The translations under genes were made by a program, and so were the position numbers. A stretch of 64,000 bases of DNA from NCBI GenBank assembly GCA_034431095.1, contig DAOUDM010000019.1:13653-77652 (forward strand), read 5' to 3'. The notes beneath the pieces are model-generated. The model saw only the letters and a list, made by a program, of their open reading frames with translations, was not told the DNA's origin and ran no database searches. The DNA is from Dehalococcoidales bacterium. Its GTDB lineage: Bacteria; Chloroflexota; Dehalococcoidia; Dehalococcoidales; W693. Below, piece by piece: positions 2,044 through 63,185 of this stretch. Within the stretch, counting starts at the first letter, position 1. The number at the start of each line of letters is the position of its first letter.

Positions 2044-2562
2044 ATGGATGGGTGGCTATATGGATTATTCGCTCTAGCAGGAGTAATTGTAGGCGGTTTT
2101 TTCACTTTTTTAGGACTTGTTAAGCAACTAGGACAACAAAAGGAATTAGATTCTCGTCAATGGCAACGTAAGATTAGAAGCGAACCGTTACTTAAATTAA
2201 GGGATGAGTTAGCTATAATGGCAACTATGCAAAATAGAGTTGCTAACGCCGCAGAAAAACTATATAACATAGATAGCGATGGGATGGAAAAGGCAAATAT
2301 AGAACTAGAAGAAGCTATAAATGATTGGAATACCTATTTATCAAAGGGAAATCTATTTCAAACTTTGCTTATACAATACGATACAGAACTTTTTAACAAT
2401 GTGCTTAATATTCAGAAAAGTTATATTACCTCTTATCACACCCTACGGCATAAGGTATCTAAAAGAGATGAACGGGATAAAGCTATAGGACCACTAAGTA
2501 AAGTTTGGCAAAATGTAATTTCAGCTCAAGAACTAATCAACAAACGACTAGAGGAACTTTAA
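2044..2562 (+). CDS. hypothetical protein with N-terminal transmembrane helix (AT-rich orphan)
   Basis: 172-aa ORF with an SD (CAGGAG) upstream. The N-terminus is hydrophobic (WLYGLFALAGVIVGGFFTFLGL). It is visibly AT-richer than its flanks and I recognise no family. Confidence 0.5.
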   Translation: MDGWLYGLFALAGVIVGGFFTFLGLVKQLGQQKELDSRQWQRKIRSEPLLKLRDELAIMATMQNRVANAAEKLYNIDSDGMEKANIELEEAINDWNTYLSKGNLFQTLLIQYDTELFNNVLNIQKSYITSYHTLRHKVSKRDERDKAIGPLSKVWQNVISAQELINKRLEEL

Positions 2563-2565
2563 AAA

Positions 2566-2722
2566 GCGGGGAGTTTGAGGGGCGAAGCCCCTCATTAAAA
2601 AGCTTCCCCTTCCCCTTGGCAAGGGGAAGGGGATAAAGGGGATGGGGTTGATAAGAATAAGACACACTTCTATCTTTTCCCACCCGCCGCCCTTTAAGGA
2701 ATAAGATAAGGGGGTGAGGTAG
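2566..2722. repeat. intergenic hairpin-repeat cluster C1 (modules M1+M2+M6)
   Basis: Contains hairpin TGAGGGGC-GAA-GCCCCTCA (2576-2594) and a 13-bp perfect hairpin TCCCCTTCCCCTT-GGC-AAGGGGAAGGGGA (2605-2633) with tail TAAAGGGGATGGGGTTG. It then has TTCCCACCCGCCGCCCTTTAAGGAA. Near-identical copies occur at 39860-39945 and, inverted, at 50459-50545. Confidence 0.85.
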
Positions 2723-4147
2723 ATAAATCCTATAAAGTTTGGCACCGACGGCTGGCGAGCAATCATCGCCGAGGACTTCACCTTTGACAACGTTCGCCTC
2801 TGCGCCCAGGCGGTCGCCGTATATCTTAAAGACAGCGGGCTGGCACAAAGGGGGCTGGTCATCGGCTACGATACCCGCTTTGCCTCCGAAGACTTTGCCC
2901 GGGCCGCCGCCGAGGTAATCTGCGGCAACGGGATAAAGGTATACCTGTGCCCCAGAGCCGCCCCGACGCCGATGGTCAGCTATGGCGTCCTGGCAAAGCA
3001 AGCCGGCGGGGCTATCGTTATCACCGCCAGCCATAACCCGCCGCAATGGAACGGCTTCAAGTACAAGTCGGCAAACGGCACCAGCGCCCCGACGGAGGTC
3101 ATCGCCGAGCTGGAGAAGAGCATCGCCACTATTACCACTACGGGCAAGATAAGCCGAATACCGCTGGCTGAAGCTCAAAAACAAGGGCTGATAGAATACA
3201 CTGATCTGGCGCCAAGCTATGTAGAGCAGATAAAGAGCCTCATAGACCTTGACGGATTAAGAAAAGCCGGGCTCAAGATAGTGGTTGACTCTATGTACGG
3301 TGCCGGCGCTGGCTACTTTAAGATGCTTCTGGATGGAGGTGCCACAAAGCTCCTGGAGATAAACGACGAACGCAACCCTGTCTTCCCCGGCATAAAACAG
3401 CCGGAGCCGATTGCCGTCAATCTAGCTAAGTTATCAGACAGGGTCAGGCGGGAAAAGGCTGACATCGGTATCGCCACCGACGGCGATGCCGACCGTATCG
3501 GCATTATAGATGAAAAGGGCAACTTCCTGACCCAGCTCCAGGTCTTTGCCCTGCTGGCGCTATATCTTCTGGAAGTGCGTGGTGAGCGGGGCGCCATTGT
3601 TAAGACGATAACCACCACCAGCATGCTCTACCGTCTGGGCGAGATATTCAATGTGCCTGTCTATGAAACACCGGTGGGCTTTAAGTACGTCGCCCCGATA
3701 ATGCTCGCCCGGAACGCCCTCGTTGGTGGGGAGGAGAGCGGTGGCTATGGCTTCCGCGGGCATGTGCCCGAGCGCGATGCTATACTCAGCGGACTCTATT
3801 TCCTTGATCTGATGGCCAGGACGGGCAAGACGCCATCGCAGTTGCTGGACTACCTCTACAGCAGGGTAGGTCCTCACTACTACAGCCGTCTGGATATAGA
3901 GTTTGCCGAGGAGCAGAGAGAGAAAATAATCAGCCGCGTCCGGGATAGCTCTCCGGAGACGCTTGGCGGGGTTAAGGTGGCTAACAAAGACACCATCGAC
4001 GGTTTCCGCTTTACCCTGGCCGATTCCTCCTGGCTTCTCATCCGCTTTTCCGGCACCGAGCCACTGCTCCGCATCTATAGCGAAAGCAATAGCCAGTCCC
4101 GCGCCGAAAGACTGCTCGAACTGGGCCGGGAGATAGCCGGGGTCTAG
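2723..4147 (+). CDS. phosphoglucomutase/phosphomannomutase family protein (alpha-D-phosphohexomutase)
   Basis: Has the active-site TASHNP motif and the conserved N-terminus KFGTDGWR, which is encoded at 2735-2758. The frame is open from 2723. The first canonical start is ATG 2972, which would delete about 80 conserved residues. The proposed start is ATA 2723 (or 2732), downstream of AAGGGGGTGA (2708-2717). Confidence 0.8.
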   Translation: MNPIKFGTDGWRAIIAEDFTFDNVRLCAQAVAVYLKDSGLAQRGLVIGYDTRFASEDFARAAAEVICGNGIKVYLCPRAAPTPMVSYGVLAKQAGGAIVITASHNPPQWNGFKYKSANGTSAPTEVIAELEKSIATITTTGKISRIPLAEAQKQGLIEYTDLAPSYVEQIKSLIDLDGLRKAGLKIVVDSMYGAGAGYFKMLLDGGATKLLEINDERNPVFPGIKQPEPIAVNLAKLSDRVRREKADIGIATDGDADRIGIIDEKGNFLTQLQVFALLALYLLEVRGERGAIVKTITTTSMLYRLGEIFNVPVYETPVGFKYVAPIMLARNALVGGEESGGYGFRGHVPERDAILSGLYFLDLMARTGKTPSQLLDYLYSRVGPHYYSRLDIEFAEEQREKIISRVRDSSPETLGGVKVANKDTIDGFRFTLADSSWLLIRFSGTEPLLRIYSESNSQSRAERLLELGREIAGV

Positions 4148-13449: not shown

Positions 13450-14003
13450 TAAACACTGCCCCCTATAGCCCTACCTGCCTTGCCCGCCTTGAGGCGAACC
13501 ACCTCTCCGGCATATCTAATGCCCTTACCCTTGTAGGCATCGGGGGGGCGAACCGCTCGGATTTCAGCCGCCATCTGACCGACCGTCTCTTTATCAATGC
13601 CGCTAATTTTAATCTTATTAGTTCCCTCTACCGCCAGGGTGATGCCGGGCCGGGGTGATATGTTGACCTGGTGCGAAAACCCGATGCGCAGTATCAGCCC
13701 GTCGCCCGACTTTTCCGCCCGGTAGCCGACACCTACTATCTCAAGGGTCTTTTCAAAGCCCTCGGTTACCCCCTCAACCATATTAGCCAGGAGGCTTCGC
13801 GTCAGCCCGTGCAGGGAGCGGTGCTGTCTGTTATCACTCGGCCGCGATACATTAAGGGTACTATCATCCAAGGTGATAGCCATCTCGGGGCTGAAATGGC
13901 GGCGCAACTCCCCCTTGGGGCCGGTGACGGTAACCTCACCACCCTTGATATTGACCGCCACCCCCGGCGGCACTGCTATTGGCATTCGTCCTATCCTAGA
14001 CAT
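13449..14003 (-). CDS. rplF: 50S ribosomal protein L6
   Basis: 184-aa ORF beginning [13 protein letters not shown]. Confidence 0.95.
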
Positions 14004-35608: not shown

Positions 35609-35683
<75 letters not shown>

Positions 35684-39487: not shown

Positions 39488-39547
39488 AGTCAACCCCTTG
39501 AGCTAATTATATCACTCGGTTGCCGTCAATTATAGGCTTCCTTGAAG

Positions 39548-39955
39548 GTTGGCGGGTGGCTATAGATAAATAAAAGAGAGATTATTTTTCTTAGCAACCT
39601 CTCCCTGCTTAATCCCCCTCTCCTATCAATGAGAGGGGGAAATATCTATAATGGAGGGACTGCGTCCCTCCAAGCCTCCCGCTTTTATAAATGCAAAGCC
39701 TTTCTTAAGCTCTCCAATTTATCGTTCTTCCCTCTCCCTTTAATGAAGGGAGAGGGATAGAGGGTGAGGGATTTATAATAGTTCGCCCCTCTCAAACTCC
39801 CCATTTAAGTCCGTGCCATCTTAAACAACCATCCTAAGCATCCCTGTTTTTCGTTTAAGGGGGGAGTTTGAGAGGGGCCAGCCCCCTCAAATAGAACTTC
39901 CCCTTCCCCTTATTAAGGGGAAGGGGATAAAGGGGATAGGGTTGGTGAAGAAATA
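39548..39955. repeat. intergenic hairpin-repeat cluster C2 (M6-M3-M4-M5 followed by M1-M2)
   Basis: Hairpins lie at 39613-39640, 39653-39671 (GGAGGGAC-TGC-GTCCCTCC) and 39730-39756. A long-range inverted pair lies at 39781-39802 / 39861-39885. M2 with its tail spans 39897-39944. The left part is collinear with C8 and the right part with C1. Confidence 0.9.
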
Positions 39956-41677: not shown

Positions 41678-41705
41678 ATAGTGTTTTGATTGATGGAGGC
41701 CTGTT

Positions 41706-42086
41706 ATTTACGCTGTTGTTGAAACCGGTGGCAAGCAGTATAAAGTAGCCCCCGGTCAGACCATAGATGTCGAGCGCCTGGGGGTAGCCGAGGGCGATAC
41801 CGTCGAGCTGGACAGGGTATTGCTTATTGCCGACGGCGATAGTGTAACGGTAGGCAAGCCCACCATTCCCGGGGCTAAGGTAGTGGCTACTGTAAAGGGA
41901 GAGGGCAAGGGCGATAAGGTTATCGTCTTCAAGTACAAGCCCAAGGTACGTTACCGTAAGAAGACAGGTCATCGTCAGTTCTACACCAGGCTGTCCATTG
42001 ATAAGATAAGCCAGCCGGGGGATCAAGGAGAGAAGCCCAAGAAACCCCGGCGGAGTAAGAAAGAGGTAACCGAAGGTGGCGCATAA
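41706..42086 (+). CDS. rplU: 50S ribosomal protein L21 (apparent ATT start codon)
   Basis: The conserved N-terminus (I/M)[13 protein letters not shown] is encoded from ATT 41706. An in-frame TGA lies at 41691, and no ATG/GTG/TTG occurs before ATG 41820. A GGAGG SD at 41695-41699 sits 6 nt upstream of the ATT. Confidence 0.8.
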
Positions 42087-43810: not shown

Positions 43811-44055
43811 CAATAACCCCATCCCTCTATTTATTTTGTTAATCTCTCCCCCTTAATCCCCCTCTCTTTAATAAAGAGAGGGGGAAGAGGATTAGAGGGG
43901 CTTCGCTCCTCTAAAACACCCTGTAATACTTTAAGATTTTGTATCTCTTAGACACCCTGTAATATATTTATAGGTTTCACCTCTTTTAAACACTCCTTTT
44001 ATCCCCCCTTCCTTTGGCAAAGGAAGGGGGTCAGGGGGATGGATTTTCCCAGCTT
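43811..44055. repeat. intergenic hairpin-repeat cluster C3 between hisA and hisI
   Basis: Contains an M2-tail complement (AACCCCATCCC), an M3 hairpin (TCCCCCTCTCT-TTAATAA-AGAGAGGGGGA), a degenerate M1 (GAGGGGCTTCGCTCCTC) and an M2 variant. That variant reads CCCCCTTCCTTT-GGC-AAAGGAAGGGGG with tail TCAGGGGGATGG. Confidence 0.85.
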
Positions 44056-48289: not shown

Positions 48290-48507
48290 TTAGGGAGTCT
48301 AAGAGAGGCGAAGCCTCTCTTAGACTCCCTTCCCCCTCCCTTATCAAGGGAGGGGGATACAGGGGGAGGGTTGTATTGAAAATCAAAGGGGAGTGGATGG
48401 GGAAGGCTCTTATAATAGAACTCTTTCTTTCCCACCCAAGCCCGCCCTCGTCAGCTTCTTTAAAATATCGGGGGGGTAGCCCCACCGCCCCTTAAGGAAG
48501 GATAGGG
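48290..48507. repeat. intergenic hairpin-repeat cluster C4
   Basis: Contains a 17-bp perfect hairpin GGGAGTCTAAGAGAGGC-GAA-GCCTCTCTTAGACTCCC (48293-48329) and an M2 variant TCCCCCTCCCTT-ATCA-AAGGGAGGGGGA with tail TACAGGGGGAGGGTTG. M6 complements (TTTCCCACCC, CCCCACCGCCCCTTAAGGAAGG) follow, and the cluster ends in GGATAGGGTTG. Confidence 0.85.
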
Positions 48508-50437: not shown

Positions 50438-50454
50438 GGCTTAGTGTTTTAGTC

Positions 50455-50548
50455 TTAACAACCCTATCCCCTGTATCCCCTTCCCCTTACAAGGGGAAGG
50501 GGAATATTTTTATAAGAGGGGCTTCGCCCCTCTCGGACTCTCGATTTA
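50455..50548. repeat. intergenic hairpin-repeat cluster C5 (M2+M1 in inverted orientation)
   Basis: CAACCCTATCCCCTGTATCCCCTTCCCCTT-ACA-AGGGGAAGGGGAA is followed by GAGGGGC-TTC-GCCCCTC. This is the reverse-orientation counterpart of C1. Confidence 0.9.
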
Positions 50549-53879: not shown

Positions 53880-53945
53880 TGGTTGAGGACTACCTCACCC
53901 CCTGTGTCCCCCTCTCCTAACAAGGGAAGGGGTAGGGGATAGGTT
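53880..53945. repeat. intergenic repeat cluster C7 (degenerate M2/M3)
   Basis: CACCCCCTGTGTCCCCCTCTCC-TAACA-AGGGAAGGGGTAGGGGATAGGTTG. The hairpin is imperfect and carries a G-tract tail. Confidence 0.7.
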
Positions 53946-53970
53946 GTTTACAACCAAGTTAGAACGTTAT

Positions 53971-54396
53971 CTATCTATTCGTCTTGTTAAGGCTCTTAAG
54001 TATGGAAAGTATAGTGAGGACGGCGAACTGTATCTCGATGGGCTCTTTTGCCAGTACCCGGGCGACATGGGGGCTCAGATTAGCATGGTCATAGCCTGGA
54101 TTTGCCTCGGCTATAGTATCGGGCTGTGGTGGAAGATAGCCAGCCAGGATGAATAACTCGTTCTCGTTAAAACTTAGGGGCTGGGCAATCTTTCTCAGGA
54201 TAGACGCTGAGGGGAAACGCTCATTCTTTTCTATGCGACCCAGATATGACGGGGATATCCCGGATATCTGGGCGAGCTCTTGTAGCGTCAGCGGTATCAA
54301 CACTCTATGCTGTCTGATAATCCTACCCAAGCCATCACTTTTATTGACGGATATCTCTGTTGTGGTTCCCTTTCTAACTATTACTGTGTTAGCCAA
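53971..54396 (-). CDS. XRE-family helix-turn-helix transcriptional regulator
   Basis: 141-aa ORF with the HTH LTLQELAQISGISPSYLGRIEKNERFPS. Confidence 0.8.
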   Translation of the reverse strand: MANTVIVRKGTTTEISVNKSDGLGRIIRQHRVLIPLTLQELAQISGISPSYLGRIEKNERFPSASILRKIAQPLSFNENELFILAGYLPPQPDTIAEANPGYDHANLSPHVARVLAKEPIEIQFAVLTILSILKSLNKTNR

Positions 54397-55073
54397 TGCT
54401 CAAACTCTTCACTGTTTTGTTGCGTTCCTCCATTGGCTTCGTCTTCTGTGATACCTGTTAGCTCCTGCTCGACTTCTATCTCAAAGCCCGGTTTTGCTTT
54501 GCCAGCTACTTCTTCCGGTTTCTGTTGATTCTGTTGCCCGCCTGCGGCTGACATAGCCTCGCCTTCGGCTACACCTTTCCGGGCGGCATTGCTGTTATCG
54601 CCGCTTCCAATACCGCTTTCCACCCCGGCCTTGACTCCGGTCAATGCCTGTTCAGCTTCCTTACCGGCTGTCTCCTGCAGTGTCTGGGTGAGCCGCTCGG
54701 CTTTTTTACTGAACTCGGCGACCGCATCGGCGACCGCCTCGGTCGAGGACTTCTCGATTCTCATCATAATGGCTTCGCCCAGCCTGCTGGCGATTTCTAC
54801 AGTCCTGGATTTCGCCTCCTCCCTGATTTTCAGGACAATCTGCCTGGTTTTTTGCTCGTATTCACGGAGAGCCTTCTCCAGTTCCTGCTCTGCCTCTCGC
54901 TTGGCTGCCTCGCAGGCTTTGATGATGACCTGTTCCGTCTCCCGGGCTACTATCTCGATTATATCGGCCGATTCGGCCTCGGACTTATTATCCTCGGTGG
55001 CTTTCACTTCCGTCTCCTGCCTGAATAAACCTCTCCTTTTATTCTTGTTTATTTTGGACTGGATTACAATCAC
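54381..55073 (-). CDS. Glu/Ala-rich coiled-coil hypothetical protein
   Basis: 230-aa ORF with a long heptad-like acidic helical region. It overlaps the XRE gene start by 16 nt. I recognise no family. Confidence 0.5.
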   Translation of the reverse strand: MIVIQSKINKNKRRGLFRQETEVKATEDNKSEAESADIIEIVARETEQVIIKACEAAKREAEQELEKALREYEQKTRQIVLKIREEAKSRTVEIASRLGEAIMMRIEKSSTEAVADAVAEFSKKAERLTQTLQETAGKEAEQALTGVKAGVESGIGSGDNSNAARKGVAEGEAMSAAGGQQNQQKPEEVAGKAKPGFEIEVEQELTGITEDEANGGTQQNSEEFEHWLTQ

Positions 55074-55205
55074 CCGATAGTAACTTATTGCTGGTAATAT
55101 AGTACCGGGTCTGGCACGGGGGAGAGGCTTTGCAGGAAAGACCTTGAAGGACTGTTCGGGAAGGGTGGCGATACAGCTCAGGTCATGATGATTATGATGG
55201 TCGAG

Positions 55206-57307: not shown

Positions 57308-58174
57308 CTATGTTTTTGGCTCAAGCTCAAGGCTGAAGTCCAGCGCCTTCGCCGAGTGGGTTATAGCGCCAACGGAGATGGTATCGACCCCGGCCAGAGC
57401 CACCGTGCGGACGTTATCCAGTGTTATGCCTCCCGAGGCTTCGGTCTTTACCTTCGCCGGCATTAACTCCATCACCCGTTTTATCTGGTCAGGGGGTATA
57501 TTGTCCAGCATAACTATATCGGCGCCGGCATTAGCGGCTTCTATCGCCTCGGCAGTGGTATCGACCTCTATTTCAATTTTTAAGCCCTCGGGGGCATTCT
57601 TTCTGGCCCTGGTTATTATGTCTGCCAGGCTCATACCCAGCGCCCGTAGTGCCGCTATATGATTGTCCTTGATAAGAATCCCGTCGCCGAGGTGGAGGCG
57701 GTGGTTCTGCCCGCCGCCGATGCGTACCGCATATTTGTCGAGCAGTCTCATACCCGGTGCCGTCTTGCGGGTATCGGTTATGATGGTGGCAAATCCCTTT
57801 ACCCGGGCGACGTATCTGGCTGTCTCGGAGGCGACGCCGCTCAGGCGGCTCAGGAAGTTGAGGGCGACCCGCTCCGCCCTGAGAATACCTGCCACGTTAC
57901 CGGCGATGGTGGCTACCCTGTCCCCCGCTTTTAGCCCTTCTCCATCCGGGATAAGTAGCTCTACCGCCAGCGATGGCTCAGCCCTGACAAACACCAGCCT
58001 GGCGATGTCACCGCCAGCCAGTATGCCTTCTTCTTTAGCCACTATGGCTGCCCTGCCGGCGAGGTCGGCTGGTATCAGTATCTGGCTGGTTATATCACCA
58101 CCGCCGGTATCCTCGGCCAGCGCCAGGTCTATGATTCTATCAACCTGCTCTTCGGATAGTTGAAGTTTATCCAT
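57308..58174 (-). CDS. nadC: nicotinate-nucleotide diphosphorylase (carboxylating)
   Basis: 288-aa ORF with the QPRTase pattern (AL.ED.G.GD.T, RKT.PG.R, IMLDN). Confidence 0.9.
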   Translation of the reverse strand: MDKLQLSEEQVDRIIDLALAEDTGGGDITSQILIPADLAGRAAIVAKEEGILAGGDIARLVFVRAEPSLAVELLIPDGEGLKAGDRVATIAGNVAGILRAERVALNFLSRLSGVASETARYVARVKGFATIITDTRKTAPGMRLLDKYAVRIGGGQNHRLHLGDGILIKDNHIAALRALGMSLADIITRARKNAPEGLKIEIEVDTTAEAIEAANAGADIVMLDNIPPDQIKRVMELMPAKVKTEASGGITLDNVRTVALAGVDTISVGAITHSAKALDFSLELEPKT

Positions 58175-58194
58175 CTACCTCACCCCTGTAACAT

Positions 58195-58512
58195 TCTCTT
58201 GGAGGGTGGTGGGTGGGTATAGATACTAAAAGAAAAATTACTATTCATAACAACCTCTCCCCCTTAATCCCCCTCTCCTTGTAAGGAGAGGGGGAGGGTT
58301 AATATGGAGGGACTGCGTCCCTCCAAACCTCCCTCTATTATGTTTTATATGGGTTATATTCCCCTAAACCTCACTCTATTGTGTTTATATGGGCTGTATC
58401 CCCCAAACTTCCCTTTCGAGCTTTGCCCCTCTTAAACATTCCTTTTATTCCATTTATTCCCTCTCCCTTTATTACAAGGGAGAGGGATAGAGGGAGAGGG
58501 ATTTATATAATT
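58195..58512. repeat. intergenic hairpin-repeat cluster C8 (M6-M3-M4-spacer-M5) between nadB and nadC
   Basis: Holds GGGTGGTGGGTGGGTATAGA, an 11-bp hairpin at 58268-58295, GGAGGGAC-TGC-GTCCCTCC at 58306-58324, and an 11-bp hairpin at 58459-58486 with tail ATAGAGGGAGAGGGATTTATA. It is collinear with the left part of C2. Confidence 0.9.
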
Positions 58513-58515
58513 ATG

Positions 58516-60060
58516 CTAATCATTATTTATCACGATGTGCTTGCGCCACTCGGGTGAAGTCTCGGGGAAATCGGAGCGGAAGTGAGCGCCACGGCTCTCC
58601 TGTCTCAGGATAGCCGCCTCGGTCAGCAGGCGTCCGGTCAAGACCAGGTTTGCCATCTCGTACGAAGGACGGTCTTTCGGCTGGGGCAGGGACTCCTGCC
58701 AGCCAGCCAGTGTCTCGGCGGCTTCGACCAGCCCTTCTTCGTTCCGGATGATGCCTGCTTTATCCCAGAGGAGCCGTTGCAGGGTGGGAAGGCTGGGTGA
58801 AATCTTCCTCTTGGGTGGCTGTCTCCGCTCGAGCGAGAGGTGGATGTCTGCATCCTGACCGGGGACGGTCGCTGTCGGTTTGTCCGGCCTGCCGGTCTTT
58901 TCTATAATCCTCTTACCGAAAATCAGCACCTCCAGCAGTGAGTTCGAAGCCAGTCGGTTTGCCCCGTGGGCTCCGGTGCAGGCAACTTCGCCGGCGGCGA
59001 ACAGCCCGGTTATGCTGGTTTCGCCCCAGGTGTTGACCCTGACGCCGCCTATGGTGTAGTGGGCGGCTGGTGCCACCGGTATCGGTTGCTTGGTTATATC
59101 CAGGCCGTGGTCGAGGCAGAAGCAGTATATCTGGGGGAATCTGGTGGCGGTAATGTGGGGTGGTAGATGGGTGACGTCGAGCAGGACATTGTCCGCCCCG
59201 GTCTTTTCCATTTCGTGTAAAATACTGCGGGCGACGATGTCTCGCGGCGCCAGCTCGGCCTGCGGTGTATAGTCGGGCATAAAGCGGTAGCCTTCTATGT
59301 TGCGCAGTATTCCCCCCTCGCCCCTTACCGACTCCGAGATGAGGAAAGGGATTACCCCGGGAAGACACAGTGCGGTGGGGTGGAACTGGAAAAACTCCAT
59401 GTCTACTATCTCGGCGCCAGCCCGGAAAGCCAGGGCTATGCCGTCGCCGGTGGCTATCGGGGGGTTGGTGCTGAACTTAAATAGCTGTCCGGCGCCGCCG
59501 GTAGCCAGCATCAAGAAGTGGCCGCCGAACTCTTCGGTGGAGTTGTTCTCGCAGTCGAGGACTCTTACCCCGTTGACCCTGCCCTTCTCCACGATGATAT
59601 CGGTCGCCAGGTGGTGCTCCATGACCCGTATTTCAGTTGAGAGCACCCTTTTACTCAGCGTTAGCTCGATATGTTCACCGGTGGTATCGCCTCCGGCGTG
59701 GAGGATACGGGGCAGGCTGTGTGCCGCCTCCAGGGTGAGGTCAATCTCTCCGTCTAGTGTATCGAAGGGCACGCCCAGGTTGACTAGGTCAGCGATGCGG
59801 TCGGGGGCTTCGTTGACCAGGATACTCACCGCCTCTTCGTTGCACAGACCATCGCCGGCGGTTATGGTATCCTTGAAGTGTAGCTCCGGCGAGTCGCTTT
59901 TGCCTATAGCGGCGGCGATGCCCCCCTGGGCTAACCTGGTATTGCAGTCGTCGATACTGCCCTTGGTTATCAGGAGCACGCTTCCCTGCTCCTGTGCCAG
60001 CAGGGCACAATACAGCCCGGCAATACCACTGCCGACTATGATGTAATCATAGCGATAAAT
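58516..60060 (-). CDS. nadB: L-aspartate oxidase (apparent ATT start codon)
   Basis: The FAD-binding N-terminus YDYIIVGSGIAGL is encoded upstream of the first canonical start, GTG 59979. The frame is open from 60117. ATT 60060 has GGGAGG 7 nt upstream. Confidence 0.8.
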   Translation of the reverse strand: MYRYDYIIVGSGIAGLYCALLAQEQGSVLLITKGSIDDCNTRLAQGGIAAAIGKSDSPELHFKDTITAGDGLCNEEAVSILVNEAPDRIADLVNLGVPFDTLDGEIDLTLEAAHSLPRILHAGGDTTGEHIELTLSKRVLSTEIRVMEHHLATDIIVEKGRVNGVRVLDCENNSTEEFGGHFLMLATGGAGQLFKFSTNPPIATGDGIALAFRAGAEIVDMEFFQFHPTALCLPGVIPFLISESVRGEGGILRNIEGYRFMPDYTPQAELAPRDIVARSILHEMEKTGADNVLLDVTHLPPHITATRFPQIYCFCLDHGLDITKQPIPVAPAAHYTIGGVRVNTWGETSITGLFAAGEVACTGAHGANRLASNSLLEVLIFGKRIIEKTGRPDKPTATVPGQDADIHLSLERRQPPKRKISPSLPTLQRLLWDKAGIIRNEEGLVEAAETLAGWQESLPQPKDRPSYEMANLVLTGRLLTEAAILRQESRGAHFRSDFPETSPEWRKHIVINND

Positions 60061-60117
60061 TGGGCTACCTCCCAGACCATATAGTTGACTTTGGTTAGGG
60101 GTATGGCGAACGGGTCT

Positions 60118-62974: not shown

Positions 62975-63185
62975 CTTTAACAACCTTTCCCCTTAGCCCT
63001 CTTCCTTAAGGGTGGTGGGTGGGAATAGACAGTAAGAGAGGGATTTATATTTGCTACCAACCTCACCCCCTTAATCCCCCTCTCCTTATAAGGAGAGGGG
63101 GAGATATAAGAAAGAGGGGGCATAAGCCCCCTCTAAACACCCCCTTCCAGGTGCTGGTTAGGGGAGAGAGATAAAAAGAAATAGG
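62975..63185. repeat. intergenic hairpin-repeat cluster C9
   Basis: Contains M6 (GGGTGGTGGGTGGGAATAGA), an M5 tail fragment (AGAGGGATTTATA) and an M3 11-bp hairpin at 63075-63102. An M1-type hairpin AGAGGGGGC-ATAA-GCCCCCTCT lies at 63113-63134. Confidence 0.85.

Follow-up and report, generated by a model that had tools for sequence, protein, structure and literature searches.

The stretch of DNA analyzed here (64,000 nucleotides of a Dehalococcoidales bacterium, positions 13,653 to 77,652 of contig DAOUDM010000019.1, assembly GCA_034431095.1; hereafter the window) contains a phosphohexomutase gene whose reading frame opens at an ATA codon, at position 2723. The encoded protein shares all four domains and all four signature loops of the alpha-D-phosphohexomutase superfamily (phosphoglucomutase, PGM; phosphomannomutase, PMM; GlmM). 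The Pfam domains PGM_PMM_I to IV (PF02878, PF02879, PF02880 and PF00408) all exceed their gathering scores, with domain I covering residues 4-138 of the ATA-initiated protein. The phosphoserine, metal, sugar and phosphate loops were all found, as TASHNP (residues 101-106, nt 3023-3040), DGDADR (253), GEESGG (336) and SGTEP (443). The frame is intact over 474 codons, without frameshifts or internal stops. The best NCBIfam match was Arch_GlmM (TIGR03990), with 312.5 bits and thus under its 439-bit cutoff. No NCBIfam equivalog cutoff was reached, and we therefore refer to the protein only as a PGM/PMM-family enzyme, with glucose, mannose or glucosamine phosphate as possible substrates.

The mutase frame reads TAA(2702) GAT AAG GGG GTG(2714) AGG TAG(2720) ATA(2723) AAT CCT ATA(2732) AAG TTT GGC ACC GAC GGC TGG CGA, and from 2702 onward it translates to stop-DKGVR-stop-INPIKFGTDGWR. 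This is exactly the sequence that the original prediction had described for 2702-2760, with an in-frame GTG at 2714 followed by TAG at 2720. The in-frame TAG (2720-2722) lies immediately 5' of ATA 2723. TAG is the terminator of 20 of the 58 confident genes of the window, so that it should be regarded as an ordinary stop here as well. Also as predicted, the first in-frame ATG, GTG or TTG is ATG 2972, 83 codons after ATA 2723.

A 10-nt extended Shine-Dalgarno (SD) sequence, AAGGGGGTGA, ends 5 nt 5' of ATA 2723, and the reported 9/10 match of positions 2708-2717 was confirmed (Table 1). Its duplex with the 3' end of the 16S rRNA, GAUCACCUCCUUU, has a predicted energy of -16.1 kcal/mol, which makes it the third strongest start-proximal SD in the window. 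For this calculation the anti-SD was taken as canonical (GAUCACCUCCUUU); there is no 16S gene in the window, and the SDs of the window's canonical-start genes are consistent with this choice. With up to three mismatches, GGGGGTGAGGTAGATA occurs in 7 copies in the window, against 0.68 expected. Together with the occurrence of SD, stop and ATA or ATT at the orthologous position in many genomes (see below), this number indicates that the arrangement exceeds chance. The same sequence recurs elsewhere because the SD module forms the tail of a family of intergenic repeats.

Sequestration of the SD in a hairpin was considered. The C-rich segment 2681-2695 could pair with the SD, but the fold of 2672-2745 had a z-score of 0.03 against shuffled sequences and so gave the hairpin no statistical backing. 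Rfam searches at gathering thresholds returned two tRNAs only, and no riboswitch or leader near the mutase gene.

Orthologues were scanned with one genome per GTDB species. The scan yielded 80 loci with 63-80% amino acid identity, nearly all from metagenome-assembled genomes of Dehalococcoidales/Dehalococcoidia, and the upstream DNA was lined up on the invariant KFGTDGWR. In this alignment, which the original prediction had proposed as a check, the canonical starts of the orthologues fall in the column of ATA 2723. At 17 of the 80 loci, no ATG, GTG or TTG was present between the upstream in-frame stop and the lysine of KFGTDGWR (L003, L004, L005, L006, L014, L015, L017, L020, L021, L022, L023, L025, L031, L033, L038, L041 and L052). 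All 17 carry ATA (15 loci) or ATT (two loci, L003 and L038) 4-7 codons 5' of the lysine, and in most of them GGGGGTGAGGTAG or a near variant precedes this codon. In five to six further orthologues, the sole canonical codon is a GTG embedded in the SD. Altogether, the start column holds ATA in 22, ATT in 3 and ATC in 1 of 26 orthologues, and ATG, GTG or TTG in 53 others. The codon preceding ATA is TAG, TAA, TTA, CAG, CAA or AAA. A neighbour-joining protein tree showed the ATA/ATT starts intermingled with ATG/TTG/GTG starts in the near clade, and a far clade with ATG/GTG only.

The composition of the column also points to a start codon. ATA is found in 22/26 cases at the start column, whereas the adjacent Ile codon before the lysine is ATT in 16/26 (Fisher p = 2e-4). 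This preference for ATA, which the neighbouring Ile codon does not share, is the behaviour of a start codon and not of an ordinary Ile codon. In addition, the median energy of the SD duplex was -16.1 kcal/mol among the 26 ATA/ATT/ATC starts and about -6 to -8 kcal/mol among the 53 canonical ones (Mann-Whitney p = 2.7e-10, phylogeny ignored). Probably, the weak start codon and the very strong SD offset each other.

Purifying selection acts on the codons upstream of ATG 2972 as strongly as on the remainder of the mutase gene. In comparison with L161, the closest relative, the 79 codons from the lysine codon to ATG 2972 (codons 5-83) gave a dN/dS of 0.052/0.559, or about 0.09, and the next 300 codons gave 0.054/0.419; both parts lie within about 0.09-0.13. 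The N-terminal dN/dS and the 17 other genomes with the same arrangement rule out a pseudogene and a sequencing error.

The mutase gene is not the only one of its kind in the window. When SD-supported starts were scanned for by energy and the ORFs of the window were tabulated one by one, ATA or ATT starts emerged for 3 of the 58 confident genes (about 5%), namely the mutase gene, rplU (ribosomal protein L21) and nadB (L-aspartate oxidase). The last two had escaped the original prediction. For rplU, the in-frame sequence is TGA TGG AGG CCT GTT ATT(41706) TAC GCT, with GGAGG 6 nt upstream of the ATT and the next canonical codon 38 codons on. Positions 1-101 of the TIGR00061 profile align with residues 2-102 of the ATT-initiated L21. 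A metagenome scan provided 80 L21 relatives, 77 of them with a readable start; their Met column is ATT in 58/77, ATG or GTG in 12, mostly more distant relatives, and ATA or ATC in none, and nearby Ile codons vary. For nadB, GGGAGGT is followed after 6 nt by ATT(60060) TAT CGC TAT GAT TAC ATC ATA GTC GGC AGT GGT. A start at the first canonical codon would miss the GxGxxG FAD motif, which is encoded upstream of it, and TIGR00551 aligns from residue 5. The same SD, 6-nt spacer and ATT were present in L168, L169 and L170 (79-92% identity).

A fourth candidate of the window, ORF 54381-55205 on the minus strand, encodes a low-complexity Glu/Lys/Ala-rich protein and has its first canonical start 44 codons past the upstream stop; it was not counted, as its N-terminus is unclear. 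The 21-kb loci L166 and L167, from two more distant complete genomes, yielded no further convincing ATA/ATT starts, suggesting that the frequency of such starts is modest and variable between lineages. We also noted some further conserved genes in relatives that appear to be ATA-initiated and lack a canonical alternative: a PGI-like gene 3' of the mutase gene (L006:4471, L009:2325 and L062:4422), hisI (L084:3870, minus strand) and hisA (L107:3326, minus strand). Several of these ATA genes lie directly behind a GGGGGTGAGGTAG-type module, GGGG(G)TGAGG(C/T)AG. A near-consensus promoter, TTGACA-17 nt-TAGAAT, is located about 20-50 nt upstream of the rplU start.

Taken together, the comparisons make it very likely that translation of the mutase starts at ATA 2723, and they leave a small probability for all other explanations combined. 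The original prediction had named ATA initiation, reinitiation, an error and an inactivated gene without ranking them. ATA initiation is supported; error and inactivation are rejected on account of the 17 genomes and the dN/dS of about 0.09, and reinitiation is unnecessary and finds little support.

According to the reinitiation model, a ribosome would start at GTG 2714, translate GTG-AGG, terminate at TAG 2720 and restart at AUA 2723. GTG-AGG-TAG directly abuts ATA, and a GTG or ATG followed by one codon and a stop is found beside ATA in many orthologues (including L003, L005, L006, L020, L021, L023, L033, L041 and L052). However, GTG 2714 lies inside the SD core (GGGGGTGA), and no separate SD precedes it at a usable distance. 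L031 (which has GTA), L014, L015 and L010 lack the unit and yet retain the ATA. A 1-nt displacement of the SD in L017 and L022 puts the GTG out of frame with ATA, and an in-frame TGA precedes the ATA there. There is also no mini-ORF upstream of the ATT starts of rplU and nadB, and the recurrence of the unit is explained by the repeat-derived SD module. The mini-ORF at 2714-2722 is, judging from these comparisons, probably not a translated unit, and we consider reinitiation unlikely.

Initiation at the second ATA, the Ile codon at 2732 directly before Lys-Phe-Gly, would give the N-terminus MKFGTDGWR that is found in some public records. ATA is an allowed start in translation table 11, and the NCBI-sourced records P0032 and P0056 begin at this codon; similarly, some NCBI-sourced records begin L21 at ATT. 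Such records were not counted as support for ATA/ATT starts, as the same records pick ATA where ATG or TTG fits better (L17 and S9 in L166). L166 and L167 (CP070729.1 and CP070676.1) call the mutase, S9, truA and L17 from ATA or ATT despite nearby fitting ATG, GTG or TTG codons, which looks like a longest-ORF rule applied over all table-11 starts. For the mutase, these two loci have a GTG or TTG with its own SD five codons upstream, so their calls are doubtful, and for L17 and S9 the ATG or TTG suits the family N-termini. A start at ATA 2732 would place the SD at a distance of 14 nt. Orthologues vary freely between ATT, ATC and ATA at this position, as expected for an ordinary Ile codon. A start at ATA 2732 is slightly less likely than reinitiation.

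We also weighed whether the gene is inactivated or truncated at the N-terminus, with no protein made or only the 391-residue product from ATG 2972. The absence of a canonical start is in line with this idea, and the public call for this exact gene (P0009) is the 391-residue product. The selection on the upstream codons and the intact frame argue against it, as does the repetition of the arrangement in 17 other genomes, and ATG 2972 has no SD. A start at ATG 2972 would cost about 60% of domain I including FGTDGWR, yet keep the TASHNP loop. The original prediction that the catalytic N-terminal segment would be deleted is therefore imprecise. Such truncation or inactivation is hardly likely. Least likely of all is an error in TAG or ATA, which a single base change (TAG to a sense codon, or ATA to ATG) would repair, or read-through or recoding of TAG from GTG 2714: the SD-stop-ATA arrangement recurs in independently assembled genomes with TAG, TAA or in-frame TGA, TAG is in common use as a terminator in the window, and GTG 2714 has no usable SD.

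Some points nevertheless speak against the ATA 2723 start or reduce its weight. The assignment rests on comparative evidence throughout. The anti-SD of the organism was assumed to be canonical, as the 16S gene lies outside the window. Besides the disregard of phylogeny in the SD comparison, there is some circularity in assigning ATA to the five to six orthologues with a GTG inside the SD. In E. coli, AUA initiates at 1-2% of the AUG level (10.1101/063800), so that the output could be very low. Finally, close relatives have replaced the design (TTG in L161, ATG in L162 and L002), which indicates that the AUA state is labile and not strictly required.

Even with these reservations, an AUA start at 2723 can be described in mechanistic terms. 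The 10-bp extended helix between SD and anti-SD (AAGGGGGUGA, 2708-2717) would position the 30S subunit so that its P site holds the AUA, 5 nt downstream. The ordinary fMet-tRNA (gene at 35609-35683, anticodon CAU) would read this codon despite a mismatch at the third position, and the product would begin with fMet-Asn-Pro-Ile-Lys-Phe-Gly-Thr-Asp-Gly-Trp-Arg. By analogy with E. coli and S. aureus, pairing a weak codon with a very strong SD would probably keep the output low, possibly in a manner sensitive to initiation factor 3 (IF3). An unusual initiator tRNA as the cause of relaxed start use was rejected, as the features of the window's tRNA-fMet are canonical. A motif search for infC, conducted in the window and all fetched loci, did not find the gene.

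Table 1. Features of the mutase start region and related elements of the window
Feature	Position	Strand	Remarks
Extended SD AAGGGGGTGA	2708-2717	+	9/10 identity to AAGGAGGTGA; the single G-for-A change retains a G-U pair
5-nt spacer GGTAG	2718-2722	+	Includes in-frame stop TAG (2720-2722)
GTG-AGG-TAG mini-ORF	2714-2722	+	3' part of SD plus spacer
Proposed AUA initiation codon of the phosphohexomutase gene	2723-2725	+	Alignment column of ATG/GTG/TTG in orthologues
Phosphoglucomutase/phosphomannomutase-family gene	2723-4147	+	474 residues; four Pfam PGM_PMM domains
Composite intergenic repeat unit	2577-2653	+	Hairpin A 2577-2593, hairpin B 2605-2633, SD-like tail GGGGATGGGGTTGATA 2638-2653
Repeat copies	2577-2653, 39598-39640, 39880-39944, 43837-43900, 48338-48377, 50444-50532, 53887-53950, 58248-58311, 58476-58507, 63055-63118		
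Motif TATCTTTTCCCACCCGCCGCCCT	2671-2693	+	Between repeat and SD; possible promoter/leader element
Copies of 23-nt motif TATCTNTNCCCACCCNCCNCCCT	2671-2693, 39546-39568, 58203-58225, 63009-63031	+, -, -, -	
Cassette end AGGGGTGAGGTAG, then ATG	58172-58187	-	Start of nadC (57308-58174); paralogous to mutase upstream region
rplU (ribosomal protein L21)	41692-42086	+	SD GATGGAGG 41692-41699; ATT 41706-41708
nadB (L-aspartate oxidase)	58516-60073	-	SD GGGAGGT 60073-60067; ATT 60060-60058
Initiator tRNA-fMet	35609-35683	-	Anticodon CAT; three G-C anticodon-stem pairs, C1xU72 mismatch, A11:U24

The repeat family that supplies the SD module is present in the window in about ten composite copies. Each is composed of hairpin A (GAGGGGCnnnGCCCCTC), hairpin B (TCCCC[C/T]TCTCC..GGAGAGGGGGA) and a G-rich tail, which resembles an extended SD with TTG or TAG behind it. 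None of the copies lies within a gene; only some of their tails precede gene starts, and the tails of other copies point towards convergent genes at their 3' ends. In many orthologues the mutase SD is the tail of a complete repeat unit, as in L003, where GGAGAGGGGGA-TACA-GGGGGTGAGGTAG-ATT is found. The tail region (GGGGAAGGGGATAAAGGGGATGGGG) also matches a G-quadruplex motif. Intergenic hairpin repeats that carry expression signals are known as REP/BIME elements in enterobacteria and as Correia elements in Neisseria, and the repeat of the window can be likened to these, as its short units are likewise dispersed between genes and some of them adjoin genes whose expression signals they provide. 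Unlike them, it has a 3' tail that mimics an extended SD with TTG or TAG-ATA, and it provides the mutase SD and start in several genomes.

A second element, the 23-nt motif TATCTNTNCCCACCCNCCNCCCT, occurs in 4 copies in the window against 0.03 expected. Every copy has a repeat unit on its upstream side and is followed, after about 30-115 nt, by a target gene that points the same way: the mutase gene, a radical-SAM gene, nadC or tRNA-Ser. Since one target is a tRNA, the motif is more likely to be a promoter or leader element than a translational signal. At the mutase copy, TTGATA-17 nt-TATCTT is a weak sigma-70-like match. Copies of the motif were also seen in L023 and L116.

The regions upstream of the mutase gene and nadC are alike, with a hairpin repeat, an SD-like tail, an AT-rich spacer, TATCTNTNCCCACCCNCCNCCCT and then A(A/C)(G/A)GGGGTGAGGTAG. 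In the nadC cassette, an ATG directly follows GGTAG and opens the nadC ORF at 58174. Its position corresponds exactly to that of ATA 2723.

Comparison with relatives indicates that the start region of the mutase gene has evidently been reshaped by repeats more than once. L161 (90% amino acid identity) has the same low-GC ORF and repeat upstream, and there the repeat tail abuts the mutase gene, giving GGGGATAGGG-TTG-AAA-AAT-AAT-CCT. In L162 and L163 (88%), a 130-nt spacer is present and the mutase ATG has a weak SD, and in L002 (80%) the mutase also begins with ATG. L022 contains a 140-nt direct duplication (1130-1270 and 2887-3027) of the repeat, the SD, ATA and the first eight mutase codons, with about 1.75 kb between the copies; this points either to a mobile cassette or to an insertion that produced a long target duplication. 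The original prediction that repeat insertion may have remodelled the translation start is in agreement with the SD being a repeat-family tail and with the three start designs of close relatives. The combination of SD and ATA is widespread, however, and not private to this genome.

The low-GC ORF just mentioned (2044-2562, plus strand) lies between metK and the mutase gene. It has 32-37% GC, compared to about 55-60% around it, and its product of 172 residues carries a membrane helix at the N-terminus and matches no family. L161 shares this ORF, but L166 and L167 lack it and have the mutase gene directly after metK; the ORF was probably acquired as a small cassette.

Public annotations of translation starts are unreliable for this lineage, being too long in some cases and too short in others. 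In addition to the overextended calls described above, the mutases of L003 and L004 are called as 451-residue fragments, and the calls for about 13 close nadB homologue clusters lack 19-77 residues and with them the FAD motif. Gene callers that are limited to ATG, GTG and TTG mis-annotate such genes, so that the mutase loses most of domain I and nadB homologues lose their FAD motif. Truncated calls of this kind distort metabolic reconstructions of an environmentally important and mostly uncultured lineage.

In E. coli, infC starts with AUU and is subject to IF3-dependent autoregulation. Only infC and pcnB have been confirmed to start at AUU in this species, where IF3 discriminates against such starts and AUA, AUU and AUC give 1-2% of the AUG output (10.1101/063800). 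The mutase gene resembles them in its proposed AUN start, which the normal initiator tRNA would read with a third-position mismatch and at a lowered output. It differs from infC and pcnB in the use of AUA instead of AUU, and the genes of the window are metabolic or ribosomal and do not encode initiation factors.

A closer parallel is found in S. aureus, in which initiation-site ribosome profiling and reporters identified AUA starts for infC, ccpN and citZ and an AUU start for cvfC1 (PMC13009471). These near-cognate starts are conserved among related species, are always accompanied by an extended start-proximal SD and give about 10% of the AUG output; they were interpreted as attenuated initiation that is possibly tunable (PMC13009471). 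The mutase gene has the same anatomy, a conserved near-cognate start and an extended SD, its start being proposed from sequence comparison. The differences concern the organism (Chloroflexota, Dehalococcoidia), the genes (phosphohexomutase, rplU and nadB) and the SD module, which is also a repeat tail. Moreover, about 5% of the window genes are affected here, compared to four genes in the whole S. aureus genome. A literature search found nothing specific on AUA/AUU starts in Dehalococcoidia or Chloroflexi, or in rplU. The AUA/AUU plus extended SD type of start is already known, and the phylum and the genes are new.

The presence of L21 among the three AUA/AUU genes, together with a repeat that carries ribosome-binding sites, points to a feature of the lineage. 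We tentatively propose, as a possibility that falls somewhat short of an even chance, that Dehalococcoidales use AUA/AUU starts systematically, in one to several percent of their genes, and that these starts are partly created by a repeat with a portable ribosome-binding cassette. If so, the rate of AUA/AUU initiation would be at least 10 times that of E. coli or S. aureus and would include a deeply conserved AUU on L21. The cassette, consisting of the extended SD with TTG or TAG-ATA and possibly the promoter-like TATCT..CCCACCC, would rewire translation starts while spreading. It would also follow that the fidelity of start codon selection is tuned in a lineage-specific manner, and that N-terminal truncation errors are widespread in the annotations of these metagenome-assembled genomes.

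Three conserved genes with AUA/AUU starts within 64 kb, a ribosomal one among them, and the clear inverse relation of SD strength to start-codon strength make these bacteria a natural comparative system for the co-evolution of SD strength and start codon. The finding also raises the question whether Dehalococcoidia differ in how they tune start-codon stringency through IF3 and the 30S P site.

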